A DNA stretch of 64,000 bases from Torpedo marmorata (lineage: Eukaryota): assembly GCA_977017645.1 (NCBI GenBank), contig OZ360257.1, positions 15,376,001-15,440,000 on the forward strand, in the 5' to 3' direction. The notes beneath the pieces were generated by a model that ran no database searches, was not told the origin of the DNA, and was given only the letters and a program-made list of their open reading frames with translations. Shown here in pieces: positions 772-62,282 of this stretch (positions within the stretch are counted from its first letter, which is position 1; every line of letters begins with the position of its first letter). A program made the translations under genes and the position numbers.

Positions 772-823
772 ATGGACGCCACGGAGATCTTCTATCCCAT
801 TCTTGCAATTGTCGGCATTCCTG
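772..823 (+). CDS. GPR139-like GPCR copy 1, coding exon 1 (MDATEIFYPILAIVGIP-G)
   Basis: ATG at 772, hydrophobic start of TM1, donor CCTG|GTAAGT at 823/824; phase 1 joins exon 2 to give the TM1 G-N motif. Confidence 0.85.
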
Positions 824-1010
824 GTAAGTGATTTTGCTGCGATCTCGACCGCGTGTTTTCTGGTTGTCCGTATNNNNNNNNNNNNNNNNNNNNNNNNNNN
901 NNNNNNNNNNNNNNNNNNNNNNNNNNNNNNNNNNNNNNNNNNNNNNNNNNNNNNNNNNNNNNNNNNNNNNNNNNNNNNNNNNNNNNNNNNNNNNNNNNNN
1001 NNNNNNNNNN

Positions 1011-1635
1011 TCGTCGCTCTGCCAGGATTTAAAGAATCTATTGACCTGAAGTTGTTGAAGTTAGACAATGTCCAGTCACTAGAAAATAAAACCGAAGACC
1101 TCTGGGCAATGCTGCTATATCAGAGACAGTTGAGACAAATCTCAGTTGTTTTCTGCTGCGAGTCCTGTCCAACAGAAAACACAAAGAACGCTGCGATCCG
1201 ACCAGAGGTTTTAATCATTCACAGGCTGGACTGGGACATGGTTCTGGCAAAGTGAAAGTTCACGGTGTTTGCTTTCCTGTTAATATCGGTTGGTGCACGG
1301 ACGTTGGTGTTCTTTCGAAATCTTCCTCCAGTGGCGGAGAGCAGATATCGATCAAATGAAAACTCTTCAATGTACCCCGAGGTTTCTCATCAGTTGTTCT
1401 CACCCGAGTTTATCTCCTTCACGACACCAATTACAAACAGGCACGTGCGGAGCTTCATGACGTGGTCAGTAAACAAGCCCACCCCGAGACACTTCCAGTC
1501 ACAGTCGTTGACTTTACCCAGGCCTGTCTTAAGAAAACCCTGCGCAAATATCACCAGCACGTAACCTGCTGTACCAGAGGCACCAGCTCATTTGATCATT
1601 GCGACAACACCATAGGGAGTGCCTACGTTCTTTCA
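1011..1635 (+). mobile_element. Decayed Rex1/Babar-like LINE AP-endonuclease fragment in intron 1 (also ~13068-13695, 26459-27078, 40488-41112; partial at 55179-55248 and 60186-60382)
   Basis: Translation L.NVQSLENK.EDL....LYQR......CESWLT ... HPE....VDFNQA.L...L..YHQHVTC.TR....DHC...I.NAY, with stops and frameshifts. Confidence 0.7.
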
Positions 1636-2581
1636 TGATAGAATATGTTGGTGTTTGCTGTCCACCCCATCTAAACCCCTCATGATGTTGTCTACCCCCA
1701 ATAATTCACCTCTTCCCCTTCATAGCTGCAGAGAAAAGCCCCAGCTCTGTCAACCTTCCTTCATATGATAGGTTCTGCAATCCAGGCAACACCTTTGCAC
1801 ACTCTCTAGAGCATCCAGATATTTCCTTTAAGGAGGCAACAATAACTGAACGCAACGATTTGAACTGTTTATCGTCACGTGTACGGGAAAAGGTGAAAAG
1901 ACGTTATATTGCCTGCTATCCAGGCAAATCAAGCCACATAAAATACAGCAGGCAGCGCAAGGATAAAAATAGTACAGGTGATAGTGTTACAATAAAGTAC
2001 ATTATGACGTGTTAAAGACAGGAGTGCTGTTAATCTATGCAAGTCATTACCTTTTACTCATGAGAGGTCTGTTCAAGAGCCTGCCAGCAGGAATGTAAGT
2101 GCCCTTGAATATGGTTGGGTGCGTTTTTTCCAAACTCGTGCTTCTTCTGCCCGGCGGCAGGGAGAAGGAGAGACTGCGGTAGGGGTGGAACATGTATCGT
2201 GATTATTTATACCGGAGACGGCGGGAGATATGGACGAAGTCGATGGGCGGGAGATTGGATTATTGATAACGCTGATTCCGTTCATTACTCTCCGTGGTTT
2301 CTTGAATCTTTGATGCACCCGCACCGGACACTTTCTATTGTTCATCTGCACACAACTGACAGGGTCAACGGGGGCATGCCGAAGTTCCTCTTCTTCTAAG
2401 GAAGTGAAAGCGTTGCTGCTCTTTCCATTCCGTAGTGCCAATGTAATGTTGGCAACCGCATAATTTACAGGAACACACGAATGTTTCGATTAGGTTATTC
2501 CCAAAGATTCCATTGTGAAAATCACGTTAAAGATGTTGGCATGTTTTTCTGGTAGTTTCCTGGTTTTCCACCTTGTTACAG

Positions 2582-3495
2582 GTAACCTGCTCTCGATTGT
2601 GGTCCTGTCCCGGGGAATGTGCGGCCTCTCCAAAGGAGTGATTCGTTACATGGTAACCATGGCAGTTGCAGACACAATGGTCTGTGTGTTTAACGTTACA
2701 GTGACATTCGTCTTCCGCCATCATTTTCAGGGTTCATTCTGTGCACACACCACCACTTGTCGCCTAACAGACTTCATACGGAAATCCAGCGTGCAATTCT
2801 CTGTCTGGGCCACGGTATCGTTCACAGTGGACCGCTTTATTGCCATTTGTTGCCAGCAATTCAAAACAAAATATTGTACCGAAAGAAACGCCACGGTGGT
2901 TCTTACAACTGTGGTTCTGCTGAGCTTTTTGATGCACATTCCAGCTTATTTCCGGTATGAACCCCATTACATTGTGGGTGATGTCCAATGGGGCTGCCGT
3001 ACAATAACACAATATATTACTTCACCAGCATGGCAGACTTACAGATGGTTGTCTAAACTTATGGTACCACTGGTGCCGCTGCCGCGGATGTTGCTGTTGA
3101 ATTCTCTCACCGTCCGACACATTTTACTTGTCAGCAGAGCTCGGAAGGCTTTGAAGCGCCGTGGGGACGGTCAGGTATTTGATCCCGAGATGACGAACCG
3201 GAGAACGCCCATTATTTTGCTCTTCGCCATTTCTGGTACCTTCATAGCGTTGTGGACACCGGTTACGATAATTGACCAATATTTCCATCTCACCTCAAGT
3301 TTTTCGATCGACGCCCCGAACTCACTGGTTCTGGCAATTAGAATCGCGATTCTGCTGATGTATTTGAGCTGCTCTACAAACACTTGTGTTTATGCATTGA
3401 CACAGAGGAGATTCCGGGAGGAGGTGAAGAAGGTGGTAAAATATCCATTTATTGCCCTTGTACGGTTTTTAAAACCAATGACGCAGCCACAATGA
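2582..3495 (+). CDS. GPR139-like class A GPCR copy 1, exon 2 (spliced protein 321 aa)
   Basis: Pyrimidine tract plus TTACAG acceptor ending at 2581. 7TM pattern: GN (TM1), MAVAD (TM2), VDRFIAICC (TM3), KYCT, LLNSLT (TM5), FIALWTP (TM6), TNTCVY (TM7), RRFREE (helix 8). No stops or indels. Confidence 0.93.
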
Positions 3496-4382: not shown

Positions 4383-4393
4383 AATAAAATAAA
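4383..4393 (+). terminator. Candidate polyadenylation signal (overlapping AATAAAATAAA)
   Basis: Double AATAAA ~890 nt after the stop codon, present downstream of all five exon-2 copies; no transcript evidence. Confidence 0.35.
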
Positions 4394-4970: not shown

Positions 4971-4984
4971 CAGGCATATGAAGC

Positions 4985-11609: not shown

Positions 11610-12794
11610 AGGCCAACCCACCATACACCCTCTTTACCAGCGCGTCAACTCGCGCAGCAACCTTGAGGGGTGTATTAACATGGACCCCAAGATCTCTCAG
11701 TTCCTCCAAACTGTAAGAAATACTGTCATTAACACGCACTCCGCCTTCGATTCGGCCTCCAAAGTGCACTACACTTTACCGTATTGAACTCAATTTGCCA
11801 CTCCTCTGCCCAACTCCGCATCCTGTCTATATCCCGTTATAACCCACGACAGCCTTCTGCACTCCCGACAACACTGTGAACCGTTGTATCATTAGCAAAT
11901 GCAAAGAAAATAGAGCACAGAAAGAAATTCTCTGATTGGACTTGATGCCTTCGAACCAACCCTCAGCGTTGATGCATTACCCCAAACACCACAGGCGATC
12001 CAAACACTCCTCGGATCTGTGTGGCGTTTGCAACAAAAATTAAATCAGGATTTCAAGGGGGACGGTTCACGTCACAGTTCAGCGCAACACATTCACAGCG
12101 TCAGCGACGCGGGTTCAAATACAGCGCTGCCCTGGAAGGAGTTTTATTGCTTTCCCTCGTGAACTGCTCGGTTTCCCAGGGTACTCTGGTTTCTTCCCAC
12201 TCACGAAAAAAAGTATGGAATTGGCATGTTCATTGGATGTAATTTGGCAGCACGGGCGTCATGCGCTAAGTGTCTGTATATTTTAAATAAATCTTCAGTC
12301 AAGCTAGCATGGCAGTCGACGTGTGAAAACAAACCATCTGGTCAGACCGACTGATGAACTTTTGAAAACTCATTGGAATAAAGTTATTTTCAGGTGTATA
12401 ATGATAAAAAGGAAAATATGTGTGATAATCAGGATCATTGGGAACAAACAAAGGAGAGAATTGCGAACACGTACCCCAGGGACGAGGTTAAAGCGAAGCA
12501 AATGGAGATAGATGAACGCGACACTCCAGTGTCACGGTTCCACGTCAGGTGATGCAGCGAGCTCGCACCTGAACCTTGTTTATTACAATAACTAGTGTTA
12601 GTTACTCTGGGCGGAGTGATCTCAGGTCATTAAGTTAGAATGAACTGATAGTCTTTGTTAAATCGAGTATGTGGAGGTGTTATGCAAGTTAGTGTCCCAG
12701 GAGAACGGCTGTCCTATAAATTAGGCTTCACAGTGAAACTCTTCGTTTTCACATATTCACATGTGCTGTAGAGAAACCGCATTATCCTCAAACG

Positions 12795-12855
12795 ATGCCA
12801 CGAATGAAAGCCACGGATATCTTCTATCACATTATTGCAATTGTCGGCATTCCTG
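12795..12855 (+). CDS. GPR139-like GPCR copy 2, coding exon 1 ((MPR)MKATDIFYHIIAIVGIP-G)
   Basis: In-frame ATGs at 12795 and 12804; donor G|GTAAGT at 12855/12856. Confidence 0.83.
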
Positions 12856-14631: not shown

Positions 14632-15545
14632 GTAACCTGCTCTCGATTGTGGTCCTGTCACGGGGAATGCGCGGCCTCTCCAAAGGAGTGACTCGTTACA
14701 TGGTAACCATGGCAGTTGCAGACACAATGGTCTGTGTGTTTAACGTTACAGTGATATTCGTCTTCGGCTATCATTTTCCTCATTCATTCCTGGCACATAC
14801 CTCCACTTGTCGTCTTACAGACTTCATACAGAAATCCAGCGTGCAATTTTCTGTCTGGGCCACGGTATCGTTCACAGTGGACCGCTTCATTGCCATTTGT
14901 TGCCAGCAATTCAAAACAAAATATTGTACCGAAATAAACGCCACGGTAGTTCTTACGACTGTGTGTGTGCTGAGCTTTTTGATGCACATTCCAGCTTATT
15001 TCCGGTATCAACCCCATTACATTGCGGGTGATGTCCAATGGGGCTGCCGTACTATAACACGATATATTTCTTCACCAGCATGGCAGACTTACAGATGGTT
15101 GTCTAAACTTATGGTACCACTGGTGCCGCTGCTGCTGATGTTGCTGTTGAATTCTCTCACCGTCCGACACATTTTACCTGTCAGCAGAGCTCGGAAGGCT
15201 TTGAAGAGCCGTGGGGACGGTCAGGTATTTGATCACGAGATGACGAAACGGAGAACGTCCATTATATTGCTCTTCGCCATTTCTGGTACCTTCATAGCGT
15301 TGTGGACACCGGTTACGATAATTGACCAATACTTCCATCTCACCTCAAGTTTTTCGATCGACGCCCCGAAGTCACTGCTTCTGGCAATTAGAATCGCGAT
15401 TCTGCTGATGTATTTGAGCTGCTGTACAAACACTTGTGTTTATGCAATGACACAGAGGAGATTCCGGGAGGAGGTGAAGAAGGTGGCAAAACATCCATTT
15501 ATTGCCCTTGTACGGTTTTTAAAACCAATGACGCAGCCACAATGA
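14632..15545 (+). CDS. GPR139-like GPCR copy 2, exon 2
   Basis: TTACAG acceptor ends at 14631; open 914-nt exon with the same 7TM motifs. Confidence 0.92.
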
Positions 15546-22150: not shown

Positions 22151-22199
22151 TTTTGAAACTACTTTGCTGCCATTCGTCATTCTGTTCCATGTAATTTAC

Positions 22200-22950
22200 G
22201 GCCTCTCAAAATGCATCACTCAGTGGTTGCTGCGAATGGCAGAAGCTGACTGAGTGGTTGTGAAACTCTATATGAATTGATTTTATATGAGATTGACGAT
22301 CGGTATTTTCCACATTCAGACTTCAATCAGACTTCTCTCTGTAGAGTTATTCTGACCATGTTATTTATTTCCATTGACTGTTCGATGTGACTAACTGTGG
22401 CTTTCATGTTCGATCGATTTTTTGCTATTTGTCACCAAACGCTACGAGCAACATATTGCACTGAAAATAATTCATCTGTAGCGAAATCGCGGTGGAATGT
22501 TCCTCAACATTTTGGTAAAAACACCATTTTATTTATTAACCTCGGGAAGTAATTGATAACGTTGAATTATCCTGCAATGTAATATCATGCTTTTACACCT
22601 TATGAATTTGAGCAGTTATTCTCTGGCAGTAAAAAGTATTTAACTCATTTGCTCTTTATGTCTTTATCTTGGCGCCACATTCCCTGACCATCAGCCGCAT
22701 TATACTGGCTATCCGAGCGAGGAGCAAACTCCGAAGAAAGAACACCAATGGGATCCGCAGTGTCGCAGAGATGGGGAACCGCAGGAAACCGATAATGTTG
22801 CTGCTGGTCATTTCCAGCACGTTTATTCTCTTCAGGATGGCTTTCATATGCGTGCAATTTACTGTTGCGCATATTTTGGAAGGAAGCTGCAATGATACCT
22901 TCACCATTACGGGATTGTCGGGTTATATGCTGAAGTTTTCGATTTCTTGC
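22200..22950 (+). pseudogene. Decayed second GPR139-like paralog (exon 2 remnant)
   Basis: Frame-broken translation GLSKCITQWLLRMAEAD* ... FMFDRFFAICHQTLRATYCTE ... HSLTISRIILAIRARSKLRR ... EMGNRRKPIMLLLVISSTFIL ... GYML, colinear with the intact receptor but very diverged. Confidence 0.85.
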
Positions 22951-22967
22951 CCAATCCCATTGTTAAC

Positions 22968-23197
22968 AACAGCGGTTAGAGCAACGCTATTAAAGCGCCA
23001 GCGACCCGGGTTCATTTCCGGCGCTACTGGAAGGAGCTTGTACGTTCTCCCCATGTCTACGAGTGTTTCCTCCGTGCCCTCCGGTTTCCTCCCAAATAAA
23101 AAAAACCGTAAGGAGGTTGAAAGTTAATTGTGGTATTTTGGTGGGACGGGCTCGTGGGCCGGAAGTGCCTGTTCCCGTTCCCAATGCTAGATTTAAA
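22968..23197 (+). mobile_element. V-SINE-like element at the 3' end of the pseudogene (also ~38025-38250, 50507-50735)
   Basis: GCGGTTAGAGCAACGCTATT...GACCCGGGTTC...GGAGCTTGTACGTTCTCCCCATGTCT. Confidence 0.8.
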
Positions 23198-24089
23198 ATT
23201 TCAACCACTTCCTTGTTGCACTGTCCCAGAGGAAATTCAGAGAGGGTCTGAAGAATCTGGTAAAATGTCCAGTGACTCTTCTTACCAAGGCAAACAACTG
23301 CAAGGAATGACACCAGTTTATTTTCTCACATAACAAAATGAATAACCTCGAACAAAGTAAACAAAAATCACTGTACGTGCATGACCACAAAGTAACCTTC
23401 AAATGAAAATAGGGTCTCTGGATGGTGCACAGAACGTAAAATATACAACACAGTGCAGAACCTTCAGTACACGACTTTGTGCCAATTTACCTGAACCCAT
23501 TCCACAACAATATAATTTCCCAAGCGCACACCTAAAATGCTGTATATTTCTTACACCCTGTTCCTATCTTGGAGACATTAGAATGTCCCTATTGTAGCAA
23601 TCTCCGCCACCACAGGCAATGATTTCGAGGGACCAACCACTATCTGTTTAAAAACGTAACTCCCACATTTGCCTTAAAGTTTCCTTTACTCACCTTAATA
23701 AGCTGTCCTCCGGTATTAACTATTGTCGCCCCAGGAAACAGGTGCTGAATGTCCAAACTTTCTAAGCCCCCTCATAACCTTATATACCTCTGTTTATTCA
23801 CCTGTCATCCACAGAGAAAAGCTCTATCTCTGTCAACCTTGCTCCATATGACATGGTCTCCAATGCAGGCAATAAAATATCCTGATAAATATTTGCACCC
23901 TCTCTAATGCATCTACATACTTACAGTAACAAAGCGAACAGAACTGAACGCAATATTCCAAGTGTGGTCTCACCAGAGGTTTATGGGTCTGCAACATTTC
24001 CTCTCGGCTTTTATCCGACGAATGAAGTCCAACCCACCATACACCTTCTTGACCAGCGCGTCAACTCGCGCAGCAACCTTGAGGGTGTA

Positions 24090-24739
24090 CATTCTACTTG
24101 GTTTTGTCCAAAGATTCAGGATTTTTGGTTTAAAGTTAAGGAATTTTTAGACAAAGTATTAAGAAATATACTTCCAATGAATCCGATGATATTTTTATTT
24201 GGTGATATTAAAAGAATTAGTATTATGATGAATTTAAATATGTATCAAATTGAGTTTTTGAGAATTGCTTTAGCGGTTGCTAAGAAATGTATTGCTATCA
24301 CTTGGAAATCTGATGTAGATTTAGGTTTAGAAAGGTGGCACGCAGAACTTCGTTCTTGTATACCACTTGAAAAAATTACTTATAATTTACGTAACAAATA
24401 TCATTTCTTTTCGAAAATATGGAGCCCATATATAAAATTGGTCGGCTTAAAAATAAAAATTTGAAGATCTCTGAACATTGGATCAGGCTGGTGAACCTAA
24501 TTTCCACAAAATTTTAGTTTATAGTTATTTTTATTCTAGATTGACATTCTCCTTAGTTTTTCTTTTTCTTTTCTTACTTTATTTTATTTTATTTTATAGA
24601 TGAGTATGGGGGGGGTTAGGGTGGGGAGGGTGGTTGGGAGGGAGAAAATATATCACATGTATTTTGATAATTTTGCGATTTATACAATGTATTTTGTGAT
24701 TTAAAATTTTAAATAAAATATTAAAAAAAAAAAAAAAAA
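24090..24739 (+). mobile_element. Short 3' fragment of a related L1 subfamily
   Basis: Frame HSTWFCPKIQDFW...IPLEKITYNLRNKY aligns with the C-terminus of the L1 at 51373; same G-rich 3'UTR layout, AATAAA and ~18-A tail. Confidence 0.92.
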
Positions 24740-26228: not shown

Positions 26229-26280
26229 ATGGACACCACGGAGATCTTCTATCCCATATTTGCAATTGTCGGCATTCCTG
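26229..26280 (+). CDS. GPR139-like GPCR copy 3, coding exon 1 (MDTTEIFYPIFAIVGIP-G)
   Basis: ATG at 26229; donor GTAAGT at 26281. Confidence 0.85.
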
Positions 26281-28062: not shown

Positions 28063-28976
28063 GTAACCTGCTCTCGATTGTGGTCCTGTCCCGGGGAATG
28101 TGCGGCCTCTCCAAAGGAGTGATTCGTTACATGGTAACCATGGCAGTTGCAGACACAATGGTCTGTGTGTTTAACGTTACAGTGACATTCGTCTTCCGCC
28201 ATCATTTTCAGGGTTCATTCTGGGCACACACCACCACTTGTCGCCTTACAGACTTCATACAGAAATCCAGCGTGCAATTCTCTGTCTGGGCCACGGTATC
28301 GTTCACAGTGGACCGCTTCATTGCCATTTGTTGCCAGCAATTCAAAACAAAATATTGTACCGAAAGAAACGCCACGGTGGTTCTTACAACTGTTGGTCTG
28401 ATGAGCTTTTTGATGCACATTCCAGCTTATTTCCGGTATGAACACCTTTACATTGTGGGTAATGTCCAATGGGGCTGCCGTACTATAACACGATATATTT
28501 CTTCACCAGCATGGCAGACTTACAGATGGTTGTCTAAACTTATGGTACCACTGGTGCCGCTGCCGCTGATGTTGCTACTGAATTCTCTCACCATCCGACA
28601 CATTTTACTTGTCAGCAGAGCTCGGAAGGCTTTGAAGCGCCGTGGGGACGGTCAGGTATTTGATCCCGAGATGACGAACCGGAGAACGTCCATTATATTG
28701 CTCTTCGCCATTTCTGGTACCTTCATAGCGTTGTGGACACCGATTACGATAATTGACCAATATTTCCATCTCACATTAAGCTTTGCGACCGACGCCCCGA
28801 AGTCACTGCTTCTTGCAATTAATATCGCCATTCTGCTGATGTATTTGAGCTGCTGTACAAACACTTGTGTTTATGCAATGACACAGAGGAGATTCCGGGA
28901 GGAGGTGAAGAAGGTGGCAAAATATCCATTTATTGCCCTTGTACGGTTTTTAAAACCAATGACGCAGCCACAATGA
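28063..28976 (+). CDS. GPR139-like GPCR copy 3, exon 2
   Basis: Acceptor ends at 28062; open 914-nt exon with 7TM motifs. Confidence 0.93.
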
Positions 28977-35368: not shown

Positions 35369-35890
35369 TTTTGAAACTACTTTGATGCCATTCGTCATTC
35401 TGTTCCATGTAATTTACGGCCTCTCAAAATGCATCACTCAGTGGTTGCTGGGAATGGCAGAAGCTGACTGAGTGGTTGTGAAACTGTATATGAATTGATT
35501 TTATATGAGATTGACGATCGGTATTTTCCACATTCAGACTTCAATCAGACTTCTCTCTGTAGAGTTATTCTGACCATGTTATTTATTTCCATTGACTGTT
35601 CGATCGATCGATTTTTTGCTTTTTGTCACCAAACGCTACGATCAAAATATTGCACTGAAAATAATTCATCTGTAGCGAAATCGCGGTGGAATTTTCCTCA
35701 ACATTTGGGAAAAAACACCATTTTATTTATTAACCTCGGGAAGTAATTGATAACGTTGAATTATCCTGCAATGTAATATTAAGAAGTAAACACGAAAATC
35801 TGTAGACACCGTAATAATGTAGTAAAAAACACAAATGCTGGAGAACTCAGCAGGTCAAACAGTGTCTTTTATGTAGCAAAGGTAGAAATA

Positions 35891-35931
35891 CATAACTGAC
35901 GTTTCAGGCTTGAGCCCTTCTTCAAAGTATG
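35891..35931 (-). ncRNA. Mirror copy of the hammerhead-like motif in the inverted arm
   Basis: Reverse complement of 37517-37557. Confidence 0.55.
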
Positions 35932-37516
35932 AGAAAATGCCGGCAGACGTCCGAACAAAGGAGTGAGGGGGGAAGGGTGGGTGGGAAAGGCAGAAGATAA
36001 TAGGTGGAGACAGGAGGGAGGGGACAGTAGCAAAGAGGGGGAGGAGGGATGGCTGGGTAGCTGGAGAAACACAGGAAGGACAGGTGAGGGGGGAGGGGAA
36101 GGGAACAACAAGCAGGTTTAGTGGAAAGCAGAAAAGTCAATGTTAATTCCATCTGGCTGGAGAGTGCCGAGACGGAATATGAGATGTTGTTCCTCCAGTT
36201 TGCGGGTAGTCTTGGTGGGATAGTACATGAGGCCATGGACAGACATGTGAGTGTGGGAGTGTGACCCAGAATTGAAATGGTTGGCCACTGGGAGGTCGCT
36301 GTTGTTGCGAACCGAGCGGAGGTGCTGAGCGAAGCGATCTCCCAATCTACGACCGGTCTCTCCAATGTATAGAAAGCCACAAAGGGAGCACCGGATGCAG
36401 TAAATAAGTCCTCTGGATGTACAAGTGAAGTGTTGCTTCACTTGGAAGGCCTGTTTGGGGCCCTGGACCGTGGTGAGGGGGGACGTGTGGGCGCAGGTGT
36501 TGCACCTCCTGCGGGCACAGGGGAAGGTTCCGGGGGTGCGATGGGTGGGGAGGGACGAGTGTTCCCAAGATAAGGTGTTCCACTCCAGATCTTCTGAAAT
36601 GTCTGCCTTTTTCCACAAACGTGGCTTCCCCTCCACCACCATCAACTCAGCCCTCACCCGCATCTCCTCCATTTCCCGCTCATCTGCCCTGGCCCCCTCT
36701 GCCCCCAGACACAACAAACATAGAATACCCCTCATCCTCACCTACCACCCCACCAGCCTCCGCATCCAACACATTATCCGTCGGAATTTCCGGCACTTGC
36801 TGCAGGATCCCACCACCAGACACATTTTTCCTTCTCCTCCCCTCTCGGCCTTCCGTAGGGACCGCTCCCTCCGTGATTCACTCGTGCACTCGTCCCTCCC
36901 CACCCATCGCACCCCCGGAACCTTCCCCTGTGCCCGCAGGAGGTGCAACACCTGCGCCCACACGTCCCCCCTCACCACGGTCCAGGGCCCCAAACAGGCC
37001 TTCCAAGTGAAGCAACACTTCACTTGTACATCCAGAGGACTTATTTACTGCATCCGGTGCTCCCTTTGTGGCTTTCTATACATTGGAGAGACCGGTCGTA
37101 GATTGGGAGATCGCTTCGCTCAGCACCTCCGCTCGGTTCGCAACAACAGCGACCTCCCAGTGGCCAACCATTTCAATTCTGGGTCACACTCCCACACTCA
37201 CATGTCTGTCCATGGCCTCATGTACTATCCCACCAAGACTACCCGCAAACTGGAGGAACAACATCTCATATTCCGTCTCGGCACTCTCCAGCCAGATGGA
37301 ATTAACATTGACTTTTCTGCTTTCCACTAAACCTGCTTGTTGTTCCCTTCCCCTCCCCCCTCACCTGTCCTTCCTGTGTTTCTCCAGCTACCCAGCCATC
37401 CCTCCTCCCCCTCTTTGCTACTGTCCCCTCCCTCCTGTCTCCACCTATTATCTTCTGCCTTTCCCACCCACCCTTCCCCCCTCACTCCTTTGTTCGGACG
37501 TCTGCCGGCATTTTCT

Positions 37517-37557
37517 CATACTTTGAAGAAGGGCTCAAGCCTGAAACGTCAGTTATG
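37517..37557 (+). ncRNA. Minimal hammerhead ribozyme-like motif in the Penelope 3' region
   Basis: CATACT-TTGAAGA-AGGGCTCAAGCCT-GAAAC-GTC-AGTTATG: core with a C3U variant, stem II, GAAAC/GUC and stem I. Confidence 0.6.
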
Positions 37558-38479
37558 TATTTCTACCTTTGCTACATAAAAGACACTGTTTGACCTGCTG
37601 AGTTCTCCAGCATTTGTGTTTTTTACTGCAATGTAATATCATGCTTTTACACCTTATGAATTTGAGCAGTTATTCTCTGGCAGTAAAAAGTCTTTAACTC
37701 ATTTGCTCTTTATGTCTTTATCTTGTCGCCACATTCCCTGACCATCAGCCGCATTATACTGGCTATCCGAGCGAGGAGCAAACTCCGAAGAAAGAACACC
37801 AATGGGAACCGCAGTGTCGCAGAGATGGGGAACCGCAGGAAACCGATAATGTTGCGGCTGGTCATTTCCAGCACGTTTATTCTCTTCAGGATGGCTATCA
37901 TATGCGTGCAATTTACTGTTGCGCATAATTTGGAAGGAAGCTGCAATGATACCTTCACCATTGCGGGATTGTCGGGTTATATGCTGAAGTTTTTGATTTC
38001 TTGCCCAATCCCATTGTTAACAACAGCGGTTAGAGCAACGCTATTACAGCGCCAGCGACCCGGGTTCATTTCCGGCGCTACTGGAAGGAGCTTGTACGTT
38101 CTCCCCATGTCTACGAGTGTTTCCTCCGTGCCCTCCGGTTTCCTCCCCAATAAAAAAAACGTAAGGAGGTTGAAAGTTAATTGTGGTATTTTGGTGGGAC
38201 GGGCTCGTGGGCCGGAAGTGCCTGTCCCGTTCCCAATGCTAGATTTAAAATTTAAACCACTTCCTTGTTGCACTGTCCCAGAGAAAATTCAGAGAGGGTC
38301 TGAAGAATCTGGTAAAATGTCCAGTGACTCTTCTTACCAAGGCAAACAACTGCAAGGAATGACACTAGTTTATTTTCTCACATAACAAAATGAATAACCT
38401 CGAACAAAGTAAACAAAAATCACTGTACGTGCATGACCACAAAGTAACCTTCAAATGAAAATTGGGTCTCTGGATGGTG

Positions 38480-40258: not shown

Positions 40259-40310
40259 ATGGACGCCACAGAGATCTTCTATCCCATTCTTGCAATTGTC
40301 GGCATTCCTG
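40259..40310 (+). CDS. GPR139-like GPCR copy 4, coding exon 1 (MDATEIFYPILAIVGIP-G)
   Basis: ATG at 40259; donor GTAAGT at 40311. Confidence 0.85.
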
Positions 40311-42099: not shown

Positions 42100-43013
42100 G
42101 TAACCTGCTCTCGATTGTGGTCCTGTCCCGGGGAATGTGCGGCCTCTCCAAAGGAGTGATTCGTTACATGGTAACCATGGCAGTTGCAGACACAATGGTC
42201 TGTGTGTTTAACGTTACAGTGTCATTCGTCTTCCGCCATTATTTTCAGGGTTCATTCTGGGCCCACACCACCACTTGTCGCCTTACAGACTTCATACAGA
42301 AATCCAGCGTGCAATTCACTGTCTGGGCCACGGTATCGTTCACAGTGGACCGCTTCATTGCCATTTGTTGCCAGCAATTCAAAACAAAATATTGTACCGA
42401 AAGAAACGCCACGGTGGTTCTTACAACTGTGGGTCTGCTGACCTTTGTGATGCACATTCCAGCTTATTTCCGGTATGAACCCCATTACATTGCGGGTGAT
42501 GTCCAATGGGGCTGCCGAACTATAACACAATACATTTCTTCACCAGCATGGCAGACTTACAGATGGTTGTCTAAACTTATGGTACCACTCGTGCCGCTGC
42601 CGCTGATGTTGCTGTTGAATTCTCTCACCATCCGACACATTTTACTTGTCAGCAGAGCTCGGAAGGCTTTGAAGCGCCGTGGGGACGGTCAGGTATTTGA
42701 TCCCGAGATGACGAACCGGAGAACGTCCATTATATTGCTCTTCGCCATTTCTGGTACCTTCATAGCGTTGTGGACACCGGTTACGATAATTGACCAATAT
42801 TTCCATCTCACCGCAAGTTTTTTGATCGACGCCCCGAAGTCACTGCTTCTGGCAATTAGAATCGCGATTCTGCTGATGTATTTGAGCTGCTGCACAAACA
42901 CTTGTGTTTATGCGTTGACACAGAGTAGATTCCGGGATGAGGTGAAGAAGGTGGCAAAATATCCATTTATTGCCCTTGTACGGTTTTTAAAACCTATGAC
43001 GCAGCCACAATGA
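42100..43013 (+). CDS. GPR139-like GPCR copy 4, exon 2
   Basis: Acceptor ends at 42099; open 914-nt exon with 7TM motifs. Confidence 0.93.
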
Positions 43014-49690: not shown

Positions 49691-49738
49691 TTTGAAACAA
49701 CTTTGCTGCCAATCGTTATTCTGTTCCATGTAATTTAC

Positions 49739-50490
49739 GGCCTCTCAAAATGCATCTCTCAGTGGTTGCTGGGAAAGGCAGAAGCTGACTGAGAAGTTGT
49801 GAAACTGTATATGAATTGATTTTATATGAGATTAACGATCGGTATTTTCCACATTCAGACTTCAATCAGACTTCTCTCTGTAGAGTTATTCTGACCATGT
49901 TATTTATTTCCATTGACGATTCAATGTGACTAACTGTGGCTTTCATGTTCGATCGATTTTTTGCTATTTGTCACCAAAATCTACGAGCAAAATATTGCAC
50001 TGAAAATAATTCATCTCTAGCGAAAGCGCGGTGGAATTTTCCTCAACATTTGGAGAAAGCACCATTTTATTCACTAACCTCGGGAAGTAATTGATAACGT
50101 TGAATTATCCTGCAATGTAATATCATGCTTTTACACCTTATGAATTTGAGCAGTTATTCTCTGGCAGGAAAAAGTCTTTAACTCATTTGCTCTTTATGTC
50201 TTTATCTTGACGCCACATTCCCTGACCATCAGCCGCATTATACTGGCTAACCGAGCGAGGAGCAAACTCCGAAGAAGGAACAACAATGGGAACCGCAGTG
50301 TCACAGAGATGCGGAACCGCAGGAAACCGATAATGTTGCTGCTGGTCATTTCCAGCACGTTTATTCTCTTCAGGATGGCTTTCATATGCGTGCAATTTAC
50401 TGATAAGCAGTTTTTGGAAGGAAGCTGCAATGATACCTTCACCATTGCGGGATTGTCGGGTTATATGCTGATGTTTTCGAATTTTTGCCC
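49739..50490 (+). pseudogene. Decayed GPR139-like paralog, unit 4
   Basis: Same motifs (FDRFFAICH, KYCTE, EMRNRRKPIMLLL) with stops and frameshifts. Confidence 0.83.
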
Positions 50491-51372
50491 AATCCCATTG
50501 TTAACAATAGCGGTTAGAGCAACGCTATTTCAGCGCCAGCGACCCGGGTTCATTTCCGGCGCTACTGACAGGAGCTTATACGTTCTCCCCATGTCTACGT
50601 GTGTTTCCTCCGTGCCCTCCGGTTTCCTCCCAAATAAAAAAAAAAGTAAGGAGGTTGAAAGTTAATTGTGGCATTTTGGTGGCACGGGCTCGTGGGTCGG
50701 AAGTGCCTGTTCCCGTTCCGTATGCTACATTTAAAATTTAAACCACTTCATTGTTGCACTGTCCCCGAGAAAATTCAGAGAGGGTCTGAAGAATCTGTTG
50801 AAATTTCCAGTGACTCTTCTTACCAAGGCAAACAACAGCAAGGAATGACAGCAGTTTATTTTCTCAAATAACAAAATGAATAACCTCGAACAAAGTAAAC
50901 AAAAATCACTGCACGTGCATGATCACAAAGGGACCTTCAAATGAAAATTGGGTCTCTGGAAGGTGCAAAGAACATAAAATATACAACACACTGCAGACCC
51001 TTCTGTACACGATGTTGTGCCAATTTACCTAAACTCATTCCACAATAATATAATTTCCCAAGCGCACGCCTGTAACGCGAAATCTTTCTTACACCCTGTT
51101 CCTATCTTGGAGACATTGGAATGTCCCTATTGTTGCAACCTCCACCACCACCACAGGCAATGATTTCGAGGGACCAACCACTATCTGTATAAAAACGTAC
51201 CTCCCACATTTGCCTTAAAGTTTCCTTTACGCATCCGGTATTAACTATTGTCGTCTCAGGAAACAGGTGCTGAATGTCCAAACATCCTAAGCCCCCTCAT
51301 AATATTATATACCTTTGTTTATTCACCTGTCATCCACAGAGAAAAGCTCTATATTTGTCAACCTTGCTCCAT

Positions 51373-53424
51373 TAATATAAATGGGATTAAAGTAGGTGCA
51401 GAAGAGCATAAAATTAGTCTGTTTGCAGATGATGTATTAATATATATGACAAAATCTATTAAATCACTTCAACAATTAGATAAGATATTGAGGGATTATG
51501 GTGAGATATCTGGATATAAAATAAATTCGGATAAAAGTGAGATAATGGCTCTATCTCAAGGAGACTATACTAAATGTAAAGAAGTTACAAAATTTAAATG
51601 GGCTAAAGAAGCAATTAAATATTTGGGAGTTAAAGTAGATACAAAATTAGAAAATTTATATAAATTAAATTATATACCTTTATTTCAGAAAATAAAGAAA
51701 GATTTGGATAATTGGAAAGATTTACCTATAACTTTAATGGGAAGAGTGAATTGTATTAAAATGAATATTTTTCCAAGAGTTCAATATCTTTTTCAATCTA
51801 TACCTTATGGTATTCCTCAAAAATTTTTTAAAGATTTACAAATTATTATTAGAAAGTTTTTATGGAAAGGAAAATTGGCAAGGGTAAGTATAGATAAATT
51901 AACTTGGGAATATGAAATGGGTGGATTACAACTTCCTAATTTTCAATATTATTATAAGGCAGCACAATTAAAATTTATAAATGAATTTTTTGATTTAACT
52001 AAAAATACGGCTTGGATTAATATAGAATTGAGTAATATAGGGGAAAGATATAAGGAAGATATTATTTATAAATGGAATTCCAAATTATTATTGATTAAAA
52101 AGAAAAAGTCACCGATTATTAAACACTTATTGGAAATTTGGAATCATCTAGATAATGAAATAGGACGAAAAGGATCAATATCTTTAAATATGCCATTATA
52201 TCAGAACCTATTGTTACCTTTTTCTATTGATAATCAATTTTTAAAATTATGGTATCAAAAAGGAATTAAGAAGATTAAAGATTGTTTTGAGGCAGGAAGA
52301 TTTGTTACTTTTTCTAGATTGAAGGAAAAATTTGGAATAATGGACAATACAATTTTGGCTTATTATCAGGTTAAAGGATTTTTAGTTGAGAAATTAGGGA
52401 ATCAATTAATATCTCCTAGACAAGATGGGTTAGAGTTACTAATTACTAATGGAAATGTTAATAAATTTATATCACAAATGTATAAATTACTTCAGAGAAA
52501 GATGCCTAAAGTAGGACTACATAAATCTAGATTAAATTGGGAGTCAGATTTAAATATTAGTATAGACGAACAACATTGGAAAGAACTATGTAAATTGAGT
52601 ATGACTAAAATTATTAATGTTAGATATAGATTAGTACAATATAACTTTTTTCATCAATTATATATAACACCTAAAAAATTAAAGAAATTTAATCCGGCAT
52701 TATCAGATATGTGTTTTAGGTGTAAAGATGAAATAGGTTCTTTTGTACACTGTACATGGTCATGTTTAAAAATTCAAAATTTTTGCTCTAAAGTTAAGGA
52801 TTTTTTAGATAGAATTTTTAATATTACGATTCCAATGGACCCTATGATATTTCTATTTGGAGATATTAAAAAAATTAATATTAGAAATAGATTGAATATG
52901 TATCAAATAGAATTTTTACGATTTGTGTTAGCGATTTCAAAAAAATGTATCGCTATTACTTGGAAATCAGATTTAGATTTGAATTTGGATAGATTACATG
53001 CAGAGTTACGCACGTGTATACCATTGGAAAAAATTACCTATAATCTCCGAGATAAATACCATTTCTTTTTGAAAATGTGGAGCCCATATATGAGAATTAT
53101 GGGTATGAATTAATTCTCTAAAAGTTAGTAACGCTGACAAAAGTAACCTCCAATATATAAGTAGAGTTAGCTTGTAATGGTTTTCTCCTCATACTAACTC
53201 TCATAACTTTATTATTCATTCTATTCTTTTTTTTCTTTTAACTAATACTTTTTTTTCATATTTTTCTTTTTCTTTTATTAGAATAGTGAGGGAGGGTTGG
53301 GGAGGGGAGGGTGGGAGGGGGGGGAGGTAATATATCACATGTATTTTGAATAATATACTATTTTTGATCTATGTATTTTGTGATTTTAAAAATTAAATAA
53401 AATTATAAAAAAAAAATAAAAAAA
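51373..53424 (+). mobile_element. 5'-truncated L1-clade LINE (ORF2 RT C-terminal part, CCHC domain, 3'UTR, polyA)
   Basis: Uninterrupted frame to 53113 with KISLFADD, IKYLG and CFRC-x8-H-x4-C. AT-rich, G-rich 3'UTR tract, A tail. TSD AACCTTGCTCCAT at 51360-51372 and 53425-53437. Absent from other units. Confidence 0.95.
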
Positions 53425-54800: not shown

Positions 54801-54861
54801 ATGCCACGAATGGAAGCCACGGAGATCTTCTATCCCATTCTTGCAATTGTCGGCATTCCTG
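54801..54861 (+). CDS. GPR139-like coding exon 1 of unit 5 ((MPR)MEATEIFYPILAIVGIP-G); its own exon 2 is deleted
   Basis: ATGs at 54801 and 54810, intact donor GTAAGT at 54862, TATA at 54720. Confidence 0.72.
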
Positions 54862-57229
54862 GTAAGTGATTTTGCTGCGATCTCCGCCGAGTGTTTTCTG
54901 GTTGTCCGTATTCNNNNNNNNNNNNNNNNNNNNNNNNNNNNNNNNNNNNNNNNNNNNNNNNNNNNNNNNNNNNNNNNNNNNNNNNNNNNNNNNNNNNNNN
55001 NNNNNNNNNNNNNNNNNNNNNNNNNNNNNNNNNNNNNNNNNNNNNNNNNNNNNNNNNNNNNNNNNNNNNNNNNNNNNNNNNNNNNNNNNNNNNNNNNNNN
55101 NNNNNNNNNNNNNNNNNNNNNNNNNNNNNNNNNNNNNNNNNNNNNNNNNNNNNNNNNNNNNNNNNNNNNNNNNNNNNNTCGTCGCTCAGCCAGGATTTAA
55201 ATAATCTTTTGACCTGAAGTTGTAGAAGTTAGACAATGTCCAGTCACTTCGATCATATGATAGATTCTGCAATCCAGGCAACACCTTTGCACACTCTCCA
55301 CAGCATCCAGATATTTCCTATAAGGAGGCAACCATAACTGAACGCCATGATTTGAACTGTATATCTTCACGTGTCCGGGGAAAAGTGAAAAGGCGTTATT
55401 TTGCCTGCTATCCAGGCAAATCAAGCCACATAAAATACAGCAGGCAGCGCAAGGATAAAAATAGAACAGGTGATAGTGTTACAATAAAGTACAGCATGAC
55501 GTGTTAAAGACAGGAGTGCTGTTAGTCTATGCAAGTCTTTACCTTTTCCTCGTGAGAGGGCTATTCAAGAGCCTGCCATCAGGAATGTAAGTGCCCTTGA
55601 ATCTGGTTGGGTGCGTTTTTTTCGAAACTCGTGCTTCTTCTGCCCGGCGGCAGGGAGACGGAGAGACTGCGGTAGGGGTGGAACAGATTCGTGAACATGT
55701 ACAGTGATTATTTATCCCGGAGATGGCGGGAGATATGAACGCAGTTTATGGTCGGGGGATTGACTTATTGATAACACTGAATTGCGTTAATTTCTCTTCT
55801 TAGTTTCTTGTGACCCCGACCGTAGCAGTTTCCACACCAATCTGTGATGCACCCGCACCGGACACTTTCTATTGTTCATCTGCACACAACGGACAGGATC
55901 AACGGGGGCATGCCGAAATTCCTCAGCTTCTGAGGAAGTGAAAGCGTTGTTGCTCTTTCCATTCCGTAGTGCCAATGTAATGTTGGCAACTGCATAATTT
56001 ACAGGAACATACAAATGTTTCGATTAGTTTATTCCCAAAGATTCCATTGATACAATTATGTTAAATGTGTTGGCTTGTTTTTCTGGTGTTTCCTGGTTTT
56101 TCAAAACCAGGCTGCAATACCATCCTAGGAACGAAAATTATCCATATTTATTTGGAGGAATTGGGCATGTTTCGTCGTCTGATTTGTAACTTCCACCAAG
56201 TATAATGTGCAGCAAGATCATGAAGAAAATACCTTAAATCAAAGACAACGACAGGAACAGCATTTGGAAAGGAAATTGAAAATAATTCCGAGGTCCAGGA
56301 TGAATCCGCAGTTGGAGAGAAGGGGATTGATTAACGGGAGTTAGCATCGCTTTTTTGTTGGCAGATTATATACAACCAATTTTGTGTTTGTTTCGAGGAA
56401 CAGCTCAATGTATCGATGAGAGTACTGCAGTTGATGAAGTTGACAGGAATTTCGGTACGACCCTGTCAAATATCCAGATAATGGGCTTGCACGGTTAGCG
56501 TAGCGGTTAGTGCAACACATTTACAGGGCCAGTGTCACGGGTTCGAACCCGGCCCTGTCTGTGAGGAGTTTGTCCGTTCTCCATGTGTCTGCGTGGGTTT
56601 CCTCCGGGTGATCCTGTTTCCTCCCACCCTTTAAAACGTAGTTTATTGGGTTATCTGAGCGGCACATGCTGTGGGCCAGAAAGGCCTGTTACGGTGCTGT
56701 ATGTCTAAATAATGCACTGGTCCACAGTTCAAGGGATCAAAGGCAATTTTGAAATTCGGATTCAATGTTTGCCTCGTAACAGAAGGTAATAGTTCATGGT
56801 GGAAAATTGAATATAGAATATAAGAATCTTCAACGTAGTATAGGCAATTTGGGTCTCAGTGTTATGCCAACCTGATAATCTCCGCTTCCAAGAATTCCGA
56901 GAATTTCCGTCCTTTATATCGATCATTTTCTCTCTGTTCCATGCACCAATATACTAGACTCTTAAAATATCCTAATGTACCTGCCTGTAAAACAGTTGCC
57001 AGCAGTGAATCCCATGCACCCATTACTCTCTGTGTGAAGATTGTGCCTCTAACCCTCCCCATGTACTTACTCCGAAGCACTTTTAAACGCCCCCCCCCGC
57101 CTGAATGGAGGTTTTCCTTTGCGTGTGGAAACCTTTCTTCCACAGTGCCAAAACGTCAAACTATTGGGGGGACTCATCGGATTGAACAGCGTGTGTGTGT
57201 GTGTTTCTGTATGTGTGTGTGTGTGTGTG

Positions 57230-57579: not shown

Positions 57580-58970
57580 TCTAAAAAGGGTAATAGAGAG
57601 AATCCTGAGAATTACAGACAGGTGAGGCTGACGTCAGTGGTGTGAAAACAATTGGAGAGGATTCTTAAGGACAGGATTTATGAGCATTAGGAGAGGTACA
57701 GTCGTCTGCGGGACATAAGCATGGTTTTGTGAGGGGATGGTCGTGCCTCATGAGCCTCATTGCATTTTCTGAGGAGAAAACAAAACATAATGAGGAAAGT
57801 GTGACGGTAGACCAGGTACATATGGATTTGAGTGAGGCGTTTGACAAGGTTCCCCATGAAATACTGGATCAGAAAGGCATCAGGCATTCTATCCACGGAA
57901 TCTTGGCTGTGTGAATAAAAAATTGGCTTGCCTGTAGAAAGAAGAGGACGGAACAGAAAGTATCCTGTCGGAACATCAGTGGCTAGTGGAGTTCCGCAGG
58001 GATATTTTCTTCAACCCTTGCTCTTTGTGATTTTTGTAAATGACCTAGATGAAGAGCGGAAGCGTGGGTCAGTAGGTTTGCAGATGATATAATGGTTGGA
58101 GGAGCTGCAGTTAGTGTTGAAATCTGTCGTAGATTGCAATGCAGAGATGGGCGCAAAAGTGGCAGATCGAGTTCAATCCGGATAAGTTTGTGAAGCATTT
58201 TGGAAGGTCAAACCTTGCTGAATACAGCATTAATGGTCGGATACTTAAGAGTGTGGAGGAAGAGAGGGACCTTGAAGTTAAAATCCATAGATCTCTCAAT
58301 GTTTCCGCGCAGGTTAATAGGATAGTTAAGAAGGCCTATGGGATGCTGGGTGTCAATAATAGGGGGATTGCGTTCAATAGTATAGAGGTCATGTTGCAAA
58401 TCAACACACCTCTGGTGAGACCATACTTATAGTATTTTATTCAGTTATGGCCACATCGTTATGGGAAGGATGTGGAAACTGTGGAGAGGGTGCGGAGGAG
58501 ATTTACCAGGGTATTGCCTGGATTGGAAAATGTCTTATGAGGCAAGGTTAGTAGAGCAAGGACTTTTCTATTTGGAGCGAAGAAGGATGAGAGGTGACTT
58601 CATAAAAGTCTACAAGAATATATACAATAGATAGGGTAGACAGCAAGCGCCTTTTTCGCAGGGAGGGAATAGCAAACACCAGGGGACGTATGCACAAAGT
58701 GAAGGGAGGAAGGTTGAGGGGAGGTATCAGAGGTAAATTATTCACACAGAGATGGAGGTGCCGGCAATGCCTTGCCAGGTTGGTGGTGGGGGCTGAAGCA
58801 TTTTGGGTATTTAAGAGACTCGTAGACAGGCACATGGATGAACGAAAATTAGAGGATTAAGTGGTTGAAAGGTTTCAGTATTTTCTTGGTAGGAATATAC
58901 AGGTCGGCACAACATTGAAGGCCGAATAGCCTGTAATGTGCTGTCGTGTTCCATGTTCTATGTTCTATGT
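57580..58970 (+). mobile_element. Decayed CR1 LINE 3' part, unit 5
   Basis: Homolog of 20760-22150. Confidence 0.88.
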
Positions 58971-59018
58971 TTTGAAACTACTTTACTGCCAATCGTCATT
59001 CTGTTCCATGTAATTTAC

Positions 59019-59540
59019 TGCCTCTCAAAATGCATCACTCAGTGGTTGCTGGGAATGGCAGAAGCTGACTGAGAAGTTGAGAAACTGCACATGAATTGAT
59101 TGTACATGAGATTAAAGATTGGTATTTTCCACATTCAGACTTCAATCCGACTTCTCTCTGTAGAGTTATTCTGACGATTTTATTTATTTCCATTGACTGT
59201 TCAATGTGACTAACTGTGTCTTTCATGTTCGATCGATTTTTTGCTATTTGTCACCAAACGCTCCGAGCAAAATATTGCACTGAAAATAATTCATCTGTAG
59301 CGAAAGCGCGGTGGAATTTTCCTCAACATTTGGGAAAAAACACCATTTTATTTATTAACCTCGGGAAGTAATTGATAACGTTGAATTATCCTGCAATGTA
59401 ATATCATGCTTTTACACCTTATGAATTTGAGCAGTTATTCTCTCGCAGGAAACAGTCTTTAACTCATTTGCTCTTTATGTCTTTATCTTGGCGCCACATT
59501 CCCTGACCATCAGCCGCATTATACTGGCTAACCGAGCGAG
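59019..59540 (+). pseudogene. Decayed GPR139-like paralog, unit 5, 3'-truncated
   Basis: Homologous to ~22200-22720; ends at the deletion junction GCGAGGAGGCCAACCC. Confidence 0.78.
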
Positions 59541-61368
59541 GAGGCCAACCCACCACACACCTTCTTGACCAGCGCGTACACTAGCGCAGCAACCTTGAGG
59601 GGTGTATTAACATGGACCCCAAGATCTCTCAGTTCCTCCAAACTGTTAGAACTTCTGCCATTAACACGCACTCCGCCTTCGATTCGACCTCCAAAGTGCA
59701 CTACACTTAACCGTATAGAACTCAATCTGCCAATTCTCTGCCCAACTCCGCATCCTGTCTATATCCCGTTATAACCCACGACAGCCTTCTGCACTCCAGA
59801 CAACACTGTGAACCGTTGTATCATTAGCAAATGCAAAGAAAATAGAGCACAGAAAGAAATTCTCTGATTGGACTTGATGCCTTCGAACCAACCCTCAGCG
59901 TTGATGCATTACCCCAAATACCACAGGCGATCCAAATACTCCTCGGATCTGTGTGGCGTTTGCAACAAAAATTAACTCAGCATTTCAAGCGGGACGGTTC
60001 ACGTCACAGTTCAGCGCAACACATTCACAGCGTCAGCGACGCGGGTTCAAATACAGCTCTGCCCTGGAAGGAGTTTTATTGCTCTCCCTCGTGAACTGCT
60101 CGGTTTCCCCGGGTACTCTGGTTTCTTCCCACTCACGAAAAAAGTATGGGTTTGGCATGTTCATTGGATGTAATTTGGCAGCACGGGCACTTGCGGAGCT
60201 GCATGACGTGGTCAGTAAACAGGCCCACCCCGAGACAATTCCAGTCACAGTCGTTGACTTTAATCAGGCCTGTCTTAAGAGAGCCCTGCGCAATTATCAC
60301 CAGCACGTAACCTGCTGTACCAGAGGCACCAGCTCATTTGAACATTGCGACAACAACATAAGGAATGCCTACGTTCTTTCATGATAGAGCAGGTTGGTGT
60401 TTGCTGTCCACCCCATCTAAACCCCTCATGATGTTGTCTACCCCCAATAATTCACCTCTTCCCCTTCATCGCTGCAGAGAAAAGCCCCAGCTCTGTCAAC
60501 CTTCCTTCATATGATAGGTTCTGCAATCCAGGCAACACCTTTGCACACTCTCCAGAGCATCCATATACTTCCTATAATGAGGCAACCATAACTGAACGCA
60601 ACGATTTGAACTGTTTATCGTCACGTATCCGGGGAAAAGTGAAAAGGCGTTATTTTGCCTGCTATCCAGGTAAATCAAGCCACATAAAATACAGCAGGCA
60701 GTGCAAGGATAAAAATAGTACAGATGATAGTGTTACAATAAAGTACAGCATGACGTGTTAAAGACAGGAGTGCTGTTAAGCTATGCAAGTCATTACCTTT
60801 TACTCTTGAGAGGTCTATTCAACAGCCTGCCAGCAGGAATGTAAGTGACCTTGAATCTGGTTGGGTGCGTTTCTTCCAAACTCGTGCTTCTTCTGCCCGG
60901 CGGCTGGGAGAAGGAGAGACTGCGGGAGGAGTGGAACAGATTCTTTAACATGTATAGTGATTATTTATCTGGGAGACGGCGGGAGATATGAACGAAGTCG
61001 ATGGACGGGGGATTGGATTATTGATAACACTGAATTGCGTTCATTACTCTCCGTGGTTTCGTAAGACTCCGAGCTCAGCAGTTTCCACACCAATCTGTGA
61101 TGCACCCGTACCGGACACTTTCTATTGTTCATCTGCACACAACGGACAGGGTCAACGGGGGCATGCCGAAATTCCTCAGCTTCTGAGGAAGTGAAAGCGT
61201 TGCTGCGCTTCCCATTCAGTAGTGCCCATGTAATGTTGGCAACTATATAATTTACAGGAACATACAAATGTTTCGATTAGGTTATTCCCAAAGATTCCAT
61301 TGTAACAATTATGTTAAAGGTGTTGGCTTGATTTTCTGGTAGTTTCCTGGTTTTCCATCTTGTTACAG

Positions 61369-62282
61369 GTAACCTGCTCTCGATTGTGGTCCTGTCCCGG
61401 GGAATGTACGGCCTCTCCAAAGGAGAGATTCGTTACATGGTAACCATGGCAGTTGCAGACACAATGGTCTGTGTGTTTAACGTTACAGTGATATTCGTCT
61501 TCGGCTATCATTTTCCTCATTCATTCCTGGCACATACCTCCACTTGTCGTCTTACAGACTTCATACAGAAATCCAGCGTGCAATTCTCTGTCTGGGCCAC
61601 GGTATCGTTCACAGTCGACCGCTTCATTGCCATTTGTTGCCAGCAATTCAAAACAAAATATTGTACCGAAAGAAACGCCACGGTAGTTCTTACGACTGTG
61701 TGTGTGCTGAGCTTTTTGATGAACATTCCAGTTTATTTCCGGTATGAACCCCATTACATTGCGGGTGATGTCAAATGGGGCTGCAGTACTATAACACGAT
61801 ATATTTCTTCACCAGCATGGCAGACTTACAGATGGTTGTCTAAACTTATGGTACCACTGGTGCCCCTGCCGCTGATGTTGCTGTTGAATTCTCTCACCGT
61901 CCGACACATTTTACTTGTCAGCAGAGCTCGGAGGGCTTTGAAGAGCCGTGGGGACGGTCAAGTATTTGATCCCGAGATGACGAACCGGAGAACGTCCATT
62001 ATATTGCTCTTCGCCATTTCTTGTACCTTCATAGCGTTGTGGACACCGGTTACGATAATTGACCAATACTTCCATCTCACATTAAGCTTTTCGATCGACG
62101 CCCCGAAGTCACTGCTTCTGGCAATTAGAATCACGATTCTGCTGATGTATTTGAGCTGCTGTACAAACACTTGTGTTTATGCAATGACACAGAGGAGATT
62201 CCGGGATGAGGTGAAGAAGGTGGCAAAATATCCATTTATTGCCCTTGTACGGTTTTTAAAACCTATGACGCAGCAACAATGA
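61369..62282 (+). CDS. GPR139-like exon 2 of unit 6 (own exon 1 deleted; probable partner of the exon at 54801-54861)
   Basis: Acceptor TTACAG ends at 61368; open 914-nt exon with 7TM motifs. Confidence 0.88.

Follow-up and report, generated by a model that had tools for sequence, protein, structure and literature searches.

The 64,000-nt stretch of the Torpedo marmorata genome analyzed here (GenBank assembly GCA_977017645.1, contig OZ360257.1, positions 15,376,001 to 15,440,000; hereafter the window) carries tandem copies of a gene for an orphan class A G protein-coupled receptor (GPCR), which turned out to belong to a very large family in sharks and rays. Comparing the window with itself revealed tandem units of 12-14 kb on the plus strand, six in number; four of them are ordinary genes with two exons, and the other two have each lost one half. 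Five 52-nt first exons, each ending at a GTAAGT donor, and five 914-nt second exons with AG acceptors, zero stops and zero indels were found. Exons 1 and 2 lie at 772..823 and 2582..3495 in gene 1 (where exon 1 supplies 17 codons plus 1 nt and the start of transmembrane helix (TM) 1, and exon 2 matches Pfam 7tm_1 with E=1.5e-18), at 12804..12855 and 14632..15545 in gene 2 (7tm_1, E=3.1e-23), at 26229..26280 and 28063..28976 in gene 3 (exon 2 of which served as query for the searches and for the structure model), and at 40259..40310 and 42100..43013 in gene 4. In all five first exons, the ATG is preceded at a distance of 89-90 nt by a TATA-like hexamer, presumably part of the promoter (682..687 in unit 1; the others start at 12715, 26139, 40169 and 54720).

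The two remaining units are complementary halves. Unit 5 retained its exon 1 (54810..54861) and lost its own acceptor and exon 2 in a deletion with a junction near 56102 (56099..56110, including a cryptic AG after a pyrimidine tract), and unit 6 retained an open exon 2 (61369..62282) and lost its promoter and exon 1 at a junction near 60185 (60178..60188). The unit-6 junction recurs in two other copies of the surrounding array, L062 and L091, and is therefore inherited; an assembly glitch was rejected as its source. A fifth gene would require a 6,507-nt splice from exon 1 at 54810 to exon 2 at 61369 and is uncertain, because the two exons belong to different units and the cryptic AG ending at 56110 lies between them; splicing at this site would lead to a stop after 31 codons. 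The five open exon-2 copies of the original prediction are thus confirmed, but the units number six, not five, and only four of the genes are ordinary.

Spliced in phase 1, the window products are 321 aa long, 89-94% identical to each other and share the motifs DRF, FIALWTP and NTCVY. Only a few residues precede TM1, and the N-terminus lacks a glycosylation sequon, the only sequons being located within TM2 and at the start of TM4. The short N-terminus without a sequon and the motifs (the second as FxxLWxP) had been recognized in the original prediction, as had the five open second exons (at 2582, 14632, 28063, 42100 and 61369) and the indel-rich flanks with kb-scale deletions. Judged by the adjacent flanks, a stretch of 914 nt should have gathered ~4.8 frameshift-size indels (P(0) ~0.008), and the 93 variable columns should have produced 3.5 stops (P(0) ~0.03); the open exons are therefore more than a matter of chance. 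We also noticed that, among 27 informative sites, the exon-2 copies at 14632 and 61369 agree at 18, with 12 of these falling in exon positions 124-182 (TM2 to extracellular loop (ECL) 1) and forming a second loop type, and that the remaining informative sites group the window copies otherwise, a hint of gene conversion.

The window is part of a much larger array. Searching the genome with the window gene yielded at least 130 copies (130 scored of 8,313 first-look candidates), 74-100% identical and all located within ~2.6 Mb of the same contig (C80, 14.14-16.72 Mb). We sampled 125 array copies, namely 120 fetched copies and the five window copies, leaving out five partial matches, and 120 of the 125 were open for at least 293 codons. 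Compared over 288 codons, these 120 open copies comprise 103 different DNA sequences and 98 different proteins, and 90 of them have an exon 1 followed by a GT donor no more than 4.3 kb away; where array first exons read ATA, as 11 do, an in-frame ATG precedes it by three codons. Immediately to the left of the array are two more divergent family members, and one of the two scanned family members beside the array passed the Pfam cut-off for Srw, a nematode chemoreceptor family. As a separate observation, the end of the intron before exon 2 of genes 1-4 (2536-2581 in gene 1) is open and contains an in-frame ATG, which would give a hydrophobic alternative start of 16 residues; the gene model P0002 of Narcine uses the equivalent stretch. 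As a general model, a gene of one exon that begins within the end of the intron was rejected, since the in-frame ATG is present in only 26 of the 120 open array copies.

Beyond this array, a genome-wide copy count, suggested as a check in the original prediction, revealed 1,917 exact matches to a TM3 motif of the family and 3,042 to a TM7 motif, with no match to the reversed-pattern control in either case. Over the initial 10.4 Mb of the 203-Mb scaffold C39, we found 55 loci with the TM3 motif and 91 with the TM7 motif, 45 of them with both, and scaling this overlap to the genome suggests a rough total of ~3,700-3,900 loci. Subfamilies differ in motif recall, the TM7 motif being present in just 37 of 120 array loci, and queries from other rays retrieved at least 123 and at least 122 further loci, nearly all different and spread over many contigs. 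We sampled 40 TM3-motif loci by taking roughly every other one of the first 100 in the list, and 28 of them were open from TM1 to helix 8; of the first 30 TM7-motif loci, 23 were open under strict criteria and 27 when judged on length alone; the two samples share six loci and are non-random, both coming from the first-listed large contigs. The 28 open TM3-motif proteins are all distinct, with pairwise identities of 39-99%, and clustering at 95% identity leaves 25 groups. From these figures we infer at least 2,000 intact main exons in the genome, a figure that haplotype duplication could halve. Judged by the five copies originally noticed, the scale had been underestimated ~600-fold.

Uncollapsed haplotypes or mis-assembled duplicates might have inflated the genome-wide count at least twofold, which would concern the size of the family and not its mechanism. 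The assembly consists of 4,566 contigs and comes without a completeness figure, and many matches are on short scaffolds, with near-identical genes on C121, C173, C180, C377, C387 and C393. However, 101 loci lie within the first 10.4 Mb of a single 203-Mb scaffold, all 28 sampled open proteins differ, and even a halved count would leave ~1,500 loci, so that we consider substantial inflation rather improbable. Family loci are dense at the start of C39 (0.2-13.8 Mb) and of C45 (from 0.85 Mb), where they occur in both orientations, on C39 at about one per 100 kb among transposons. On the six short scaffolds, the near-identical genes form pairs ~56 kb apart, resulting from either recent segmental amplification or assembly duplication.

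GPR139 and GPR142 are vertebrate orphan class A GPCRs, and GPR139 is activated by tryptophan and phenylalanine as well as some peptides. Class A membership of the ray receptors is evident from Pfam (7tm_1, E=3e-23) and from an AlphaFold model of exon 2 of gene 3, which shows seven long helices and helix 8 with a pLDDT (predicted local distance difference test) of 90.4. The top Foldseek matches to this model are class A GPCRs with GPR139 first, and the best match by sequence in the Protein Data Bank is GPR139 as well (E=6.6e-14). R3.50 and W6.48/P6.50 are each present in all 120 open array copies, and the NPxxY position reads NTCVY, without the proline that is also missing from GPR139/142. The family differs from GPR139 in keeping the TM3 and ECL2 cysteines, which are missing from GPR139 in the alignment.

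This resemblance, together with the phase-1 intron before the TM1 asparagine shared with GPR139 and GPR142, would be compatible with a set of amplified aromatic amino-acid sensors working like these two receptors. The agonist contacts of GPR139 include E3.32, R6.51, N7.38 and a tryptophan in ECL2 (PMC12775434). These residues and F3.33 are present in all six GPR139 and all six GPR142 sequences aligned, but E3.32, F3.33, the ECL2 tryptophan, R6.51 and N7.38 are replaced in all five window copies by Q/R, K, R, V/I and I, respectively. Moreover, in 120 homologs from sharks and rays the pocket positions that GPR139/142 keep invariant are variable, and the trees rejected an exclusive clade with these two receptors (see below). 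Sensing of tryptophan or phenylalanine, given in the original prediction as the known function of mammalian GPR139/142, is therefore very improbable, and the replaced and variable pocket argues for many ligands.

The relationship to GPR139/142 was examined in two trees, one built quickly from 71 rows and one built with more care from 23 rows, both midpoint-rooted for drawing only. The family forms one group (support 93 with 71 rows; 99/99 with 23 rows), its sister is an amphibian clade with one gene per species among the matches listed (95; 95/93), and both together join two further clades, B and C (99; 99/98), whose genes come from coelacanth, fishes, sharks, amphibians and reptiles. GPR139 and GPR142 form a separate clade (100/100), and a tree in which the family was forced into an exclusive clade with them was rejected (approximately unbiased (AU) test, p=0.0053, 23 rows, run after the first tree had been seen). 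Orthology to GPR139/142 was rejected on the basis of this separate clade and the replaced pocket residues. One gene each for GPR139 (on C56, 87% identical to the human protein over exon 2) and GPR142 (on C53) was found in this genome, the sole two matches among 148 scored candidates. Their phase-1 intron just before the TM1 asparagine codon is at the same position as in the window genes and marks the wider superfamily only. GPR139 is thus the closest solved structure, but the family is not derived from GPR139/142. Adjacent to GPR139/142, three non-mammalian clades including the coelacanth and fish receptors GPR210A/B have been described by Rinne et al. (PMC6504862), and as comparable clades group with the family at 99/98, its lineage is likely that of the GPR210 orphans. 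In contrast to the large family found here, the passage on these clades gives no expansion, and the main text of that paper makes no mention of sharks. Two single loci outside the large family were also recorded: L238 (C45:108.06 Mb), the clade-B ortholog, 71% identical to the catshark protein and with one stop, perhaps an intron, inside the match, and L239 (C25:87.69 Mb), a 34% relative.

A protein database search returned 343 clusters at E 1e-20 or better, of which the best 120 come, where named, from sharks and rays; the closest among the clusters listed is from Narcine bancroftii (79%). Catshark members include XP_038654761.1 and XP_038636253-6.1, and a protein of the chimaera Callorhinchus groups with the family rather than across the branch from it (FastTree support 93). 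Contrary to the original proposal, the family is thus not lineage-specific, and this term applies only to the latest amplification of the window's array. The many paralogs and the mix of intact and dead copies bear out the further proposal of an expanded orphan class A family undergoing birth and death.

We further explored how selection acts on the two halves of the receptor. For the array, parsimony counted 722 nonsynonymous and 502 synonymous changes, corresponding to an omega (nonsynonymous to synonymous ratio) of 0.52, with 0.51 on terminal branches. Omega was 0.62 in the outer and 0.42 in the inner half (Fisher p=7e-5), the latter with p=3e-23, and tree-free ratios agreed (0.80 and 0.45). 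The window's array is under purifying selection, with an outer/inner skew only. Positive selection at single sites of this array was rejected; the top sites in ECL3, ECL1 and TM3 were suggestive only, before any multiple-test correction or model of conversion.

A different pattern was observed in a subfamily on C39 and C45 that is marked by an APYC motif and a longer ECL1, and of which 25 distinct open sequences were compared. Its omega by parsimony was 1.73 in the outer and 0.32 in the inner half, 4.8 in ECL1 alone and 2.6 in ECL1 and ECL2 together; maximum likelihood gave 2.62 for the two loops (2dlnL 20.9 against omega=1). Tree-free pairwise loop pN/pS ratios in its two subgroups (14 and 11 sequences) were 3.0 and 3.1, with intervals above zero. 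Purifying selection inside and diversifying selection outside are clear in this subfamily. Asp, Ser, Tyr and Trp are abundant in the hypervariable loops, at 11, 10, 10 and 7%.

Mostly neutral amplification in repeat-rich regions of this 6.2-Gb genome, with few copies that matter and the rest young and not yet decayed, would account for several observations: a dead paralog has been co-amplified with the window units, 17 of the 120 open copies are exact duplicates of another, the youngest clade lacks significant constraint, and larger elasmobranch genomes tend toward more tandem duplicates (10.1101/2025.06.08.657570). Such a process is at odds with the inner-half omega of 0.42 and the terminal-branch omega of 0.51, and on the array tree ~71 stop gains would be expected (a rough yardstick, since broken copies were left out of the tree) compared with only 5 broken copies among 125. 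Drift also cannot yield a loop omega above 1 alongside an inner omega of 0.3. We therefore regard neutral amplification as improbable; like amino-acid sensing, it fits poorly.

Taken together, the genomic data make recognition of non-self molecules, be it chemosensory or immune, a quite probable function of the family. Its use as a chemosensory repertoire for outside ligands, likely peptides, is a tentative proposal that falls slightly short of even chances. The family has grown by tandem and dispersed duplication and has lost copies through stops, frameshifts and deletions. Each receptor would bind a different set of ligands through its outer loops and pocket, and all would signal via a common G protein, with the conserved cytoplasmic half (DRF, helix 8) in common; breadth would arise from copy number, as in odorant receptors or nematode srw. 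That the ligands may be peptides is suggested by the ancestry, GPR139/142 having a common origin with FMRFamide/MIP-type receptors (PMC8514136), by the selection on the outer loops and by the precedent of srw, a family related to FMRFamide and myosuppressin receptors that turns over fast and has been speculated to sense environmental peptides (PMC2576165). Like srw, the ray family descends from receptors of this type, shows fast birth and death and includes some members with Srw Pfam matches. It differs in that srw numbers ~150 genes in C. elegans and is not reported to be under clear positive selection, and we infer that the two are independent expansions.

The same sequence evidence fits immune or barrier surveillance, in which receptors on leukocytes, skin or gill cells would detect microbial or parasite peptides as formyl-peptide or Mas-related receptors do. 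Asp/Ser/Tyr/Trp-rich loops such as those found here resemble antibody loops. The loop omega of ~3 exceeds that of most chemoreceptor families, positive selection having been detected in 1 of 19 such families in nematodes (PMC2576165), and MAS1 relatives are described as missing in cartilaginous fishes (PMC8455134). A RING and B-box (TRIM-like) exon (L229:9312-9929, minus strand, near 14.079 Mb of C80) lies ~60 kb to the left of the array. It is, however, a single neighbor of this kind, and in 100 kb of C39 only transposons were found between family genes among the matches listed. We consider immune surveillance a possible but rather unlikely function.

Several observations weigh against an outward-looking, diversifying repertoire of functional receptors. 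No exon 1 was found within 4.3 kb for 30 of the 120 open array copies, and radical substitutions occur in the transmembrane helices of window copies 1, 2 and 6, such as Leu to Arg in TM5 and Ser to Pro at the start of TM6 in gene 1. Positive selection was not shown in the window's array, where the tree-free loop pN/pS was 1.05, and for the 24 copies closest to the window the ratios were 0.63 for the inner and 0.78 for the outer half, with intervals that include zero. When the APYC subgroups were pooled, the tree-free loop ratio was a non-significant 1.35; the subfamily and the loop borders were chosen after the variation had been seen, and gene conversion can bias tree-based counts. Nothing in these sequences separates sensory from immune use; apart from family members, the RING/B-box gene is the sole non-transposon neighbor in the ~200 kb inspected. 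A top-50 list for the catshark nose is without any GPCR (PMC11979771), a weak negative for multigene families.

The surroundings of the receptor genes are rich in relics and mobile elements. Units 2-5 also contain a long-dead second paralog of the same receptor family, missed in the original prediction and detected by tblastn, with stops and frameshifts common to its copies. All of these relics are on the plus strand, at 22161..23277 in unit 2, 35379..38329 in unit 3, 49700..50836 in unit 4 and, truncated, 58962..59544 in unit 5. The unit-3 relic is split by an insertion at ~35818-37630 that carries a 744-bp inverted repeat (99.9% identical) and a GIY-YIG-like frame (36404-37330) under the Pfam cut-off, likely a young Penelope-type element. 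Reverse-transcriptase fragments of the LINE (long interspersed nuclear element) type lie between units at 51245-53113 (RVT_1 match) and 23889-24464. Besides the RING/B-box exon, L229 contains a long frame (L229:4188-6947, plus strand) that resembles a retrotransposon and has SCAN and integrase domains.

The family has been hidden under automatic and wrong names. Databases call most members 'probable GPR139', and the ESM Atlas returned only clusters with the same automatic name and clusters resembling invertebrate peptide receptors. Public members P0008, P0014, P0017, P0018, P0023, P0026, P0087 and P0159 are misnamed, with labels such as melatonin, mu-opioid, C5a, neuromedin-U, vasotocin, cephalotocin, P2Y6 and vasopressin V2 receptor-like, which can mislead endocrine and immune studies in sharks. 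We found no description of the family in cartilaginous fishes in the literature searched, judged from partly incomplete listings, and term look-ups found no mention of GPR139 in the main texts of 10.1101/2025.06.08.657570, PMC11979771, 10.1101/2022.10.17.512540 and PMC8455134. With many members already annotated under a borrowed name, specialists may know of the expansion.

Sharks and rays have been described as having small olfactory repertoires, with 2 OR, 6 OR-like and ~35 V2R-type genes in the catshark (PMC11979771), and as being relatively poor in GPCRs (PMC8455134). This picture is contradicted by a family that reaches thousands of loci in a single ray and has numerous members elsewhere among sharks and rays. 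Like the vertebrate OR, V1R, TAAR and V2R families, the family is clustered, subject to birth and death and encoded mainly by one long exon; unlike them, it belongs to another GPCR branch. Its size is comparable to or above the 1,948 OR genes cited for the elephant (PMC11979771). We see evenly balanced chances that it constitutes an undescribed fifth large repertoire for outside molecules in cartilaginous fishes, derived from the GPR139-related branch of peptide receptors, which with more than 2,000 putatively intact genes in this ray would rival the largest vertebrate OR families and whose extracellular loops would diversify under positive selection. If sensory, the family would be a candidate answer to how fishes with so few known receptors sense chemicals; if immune, it would mean that an early lineage of jawed vertebrates has a large recognition system encoded in its germline.

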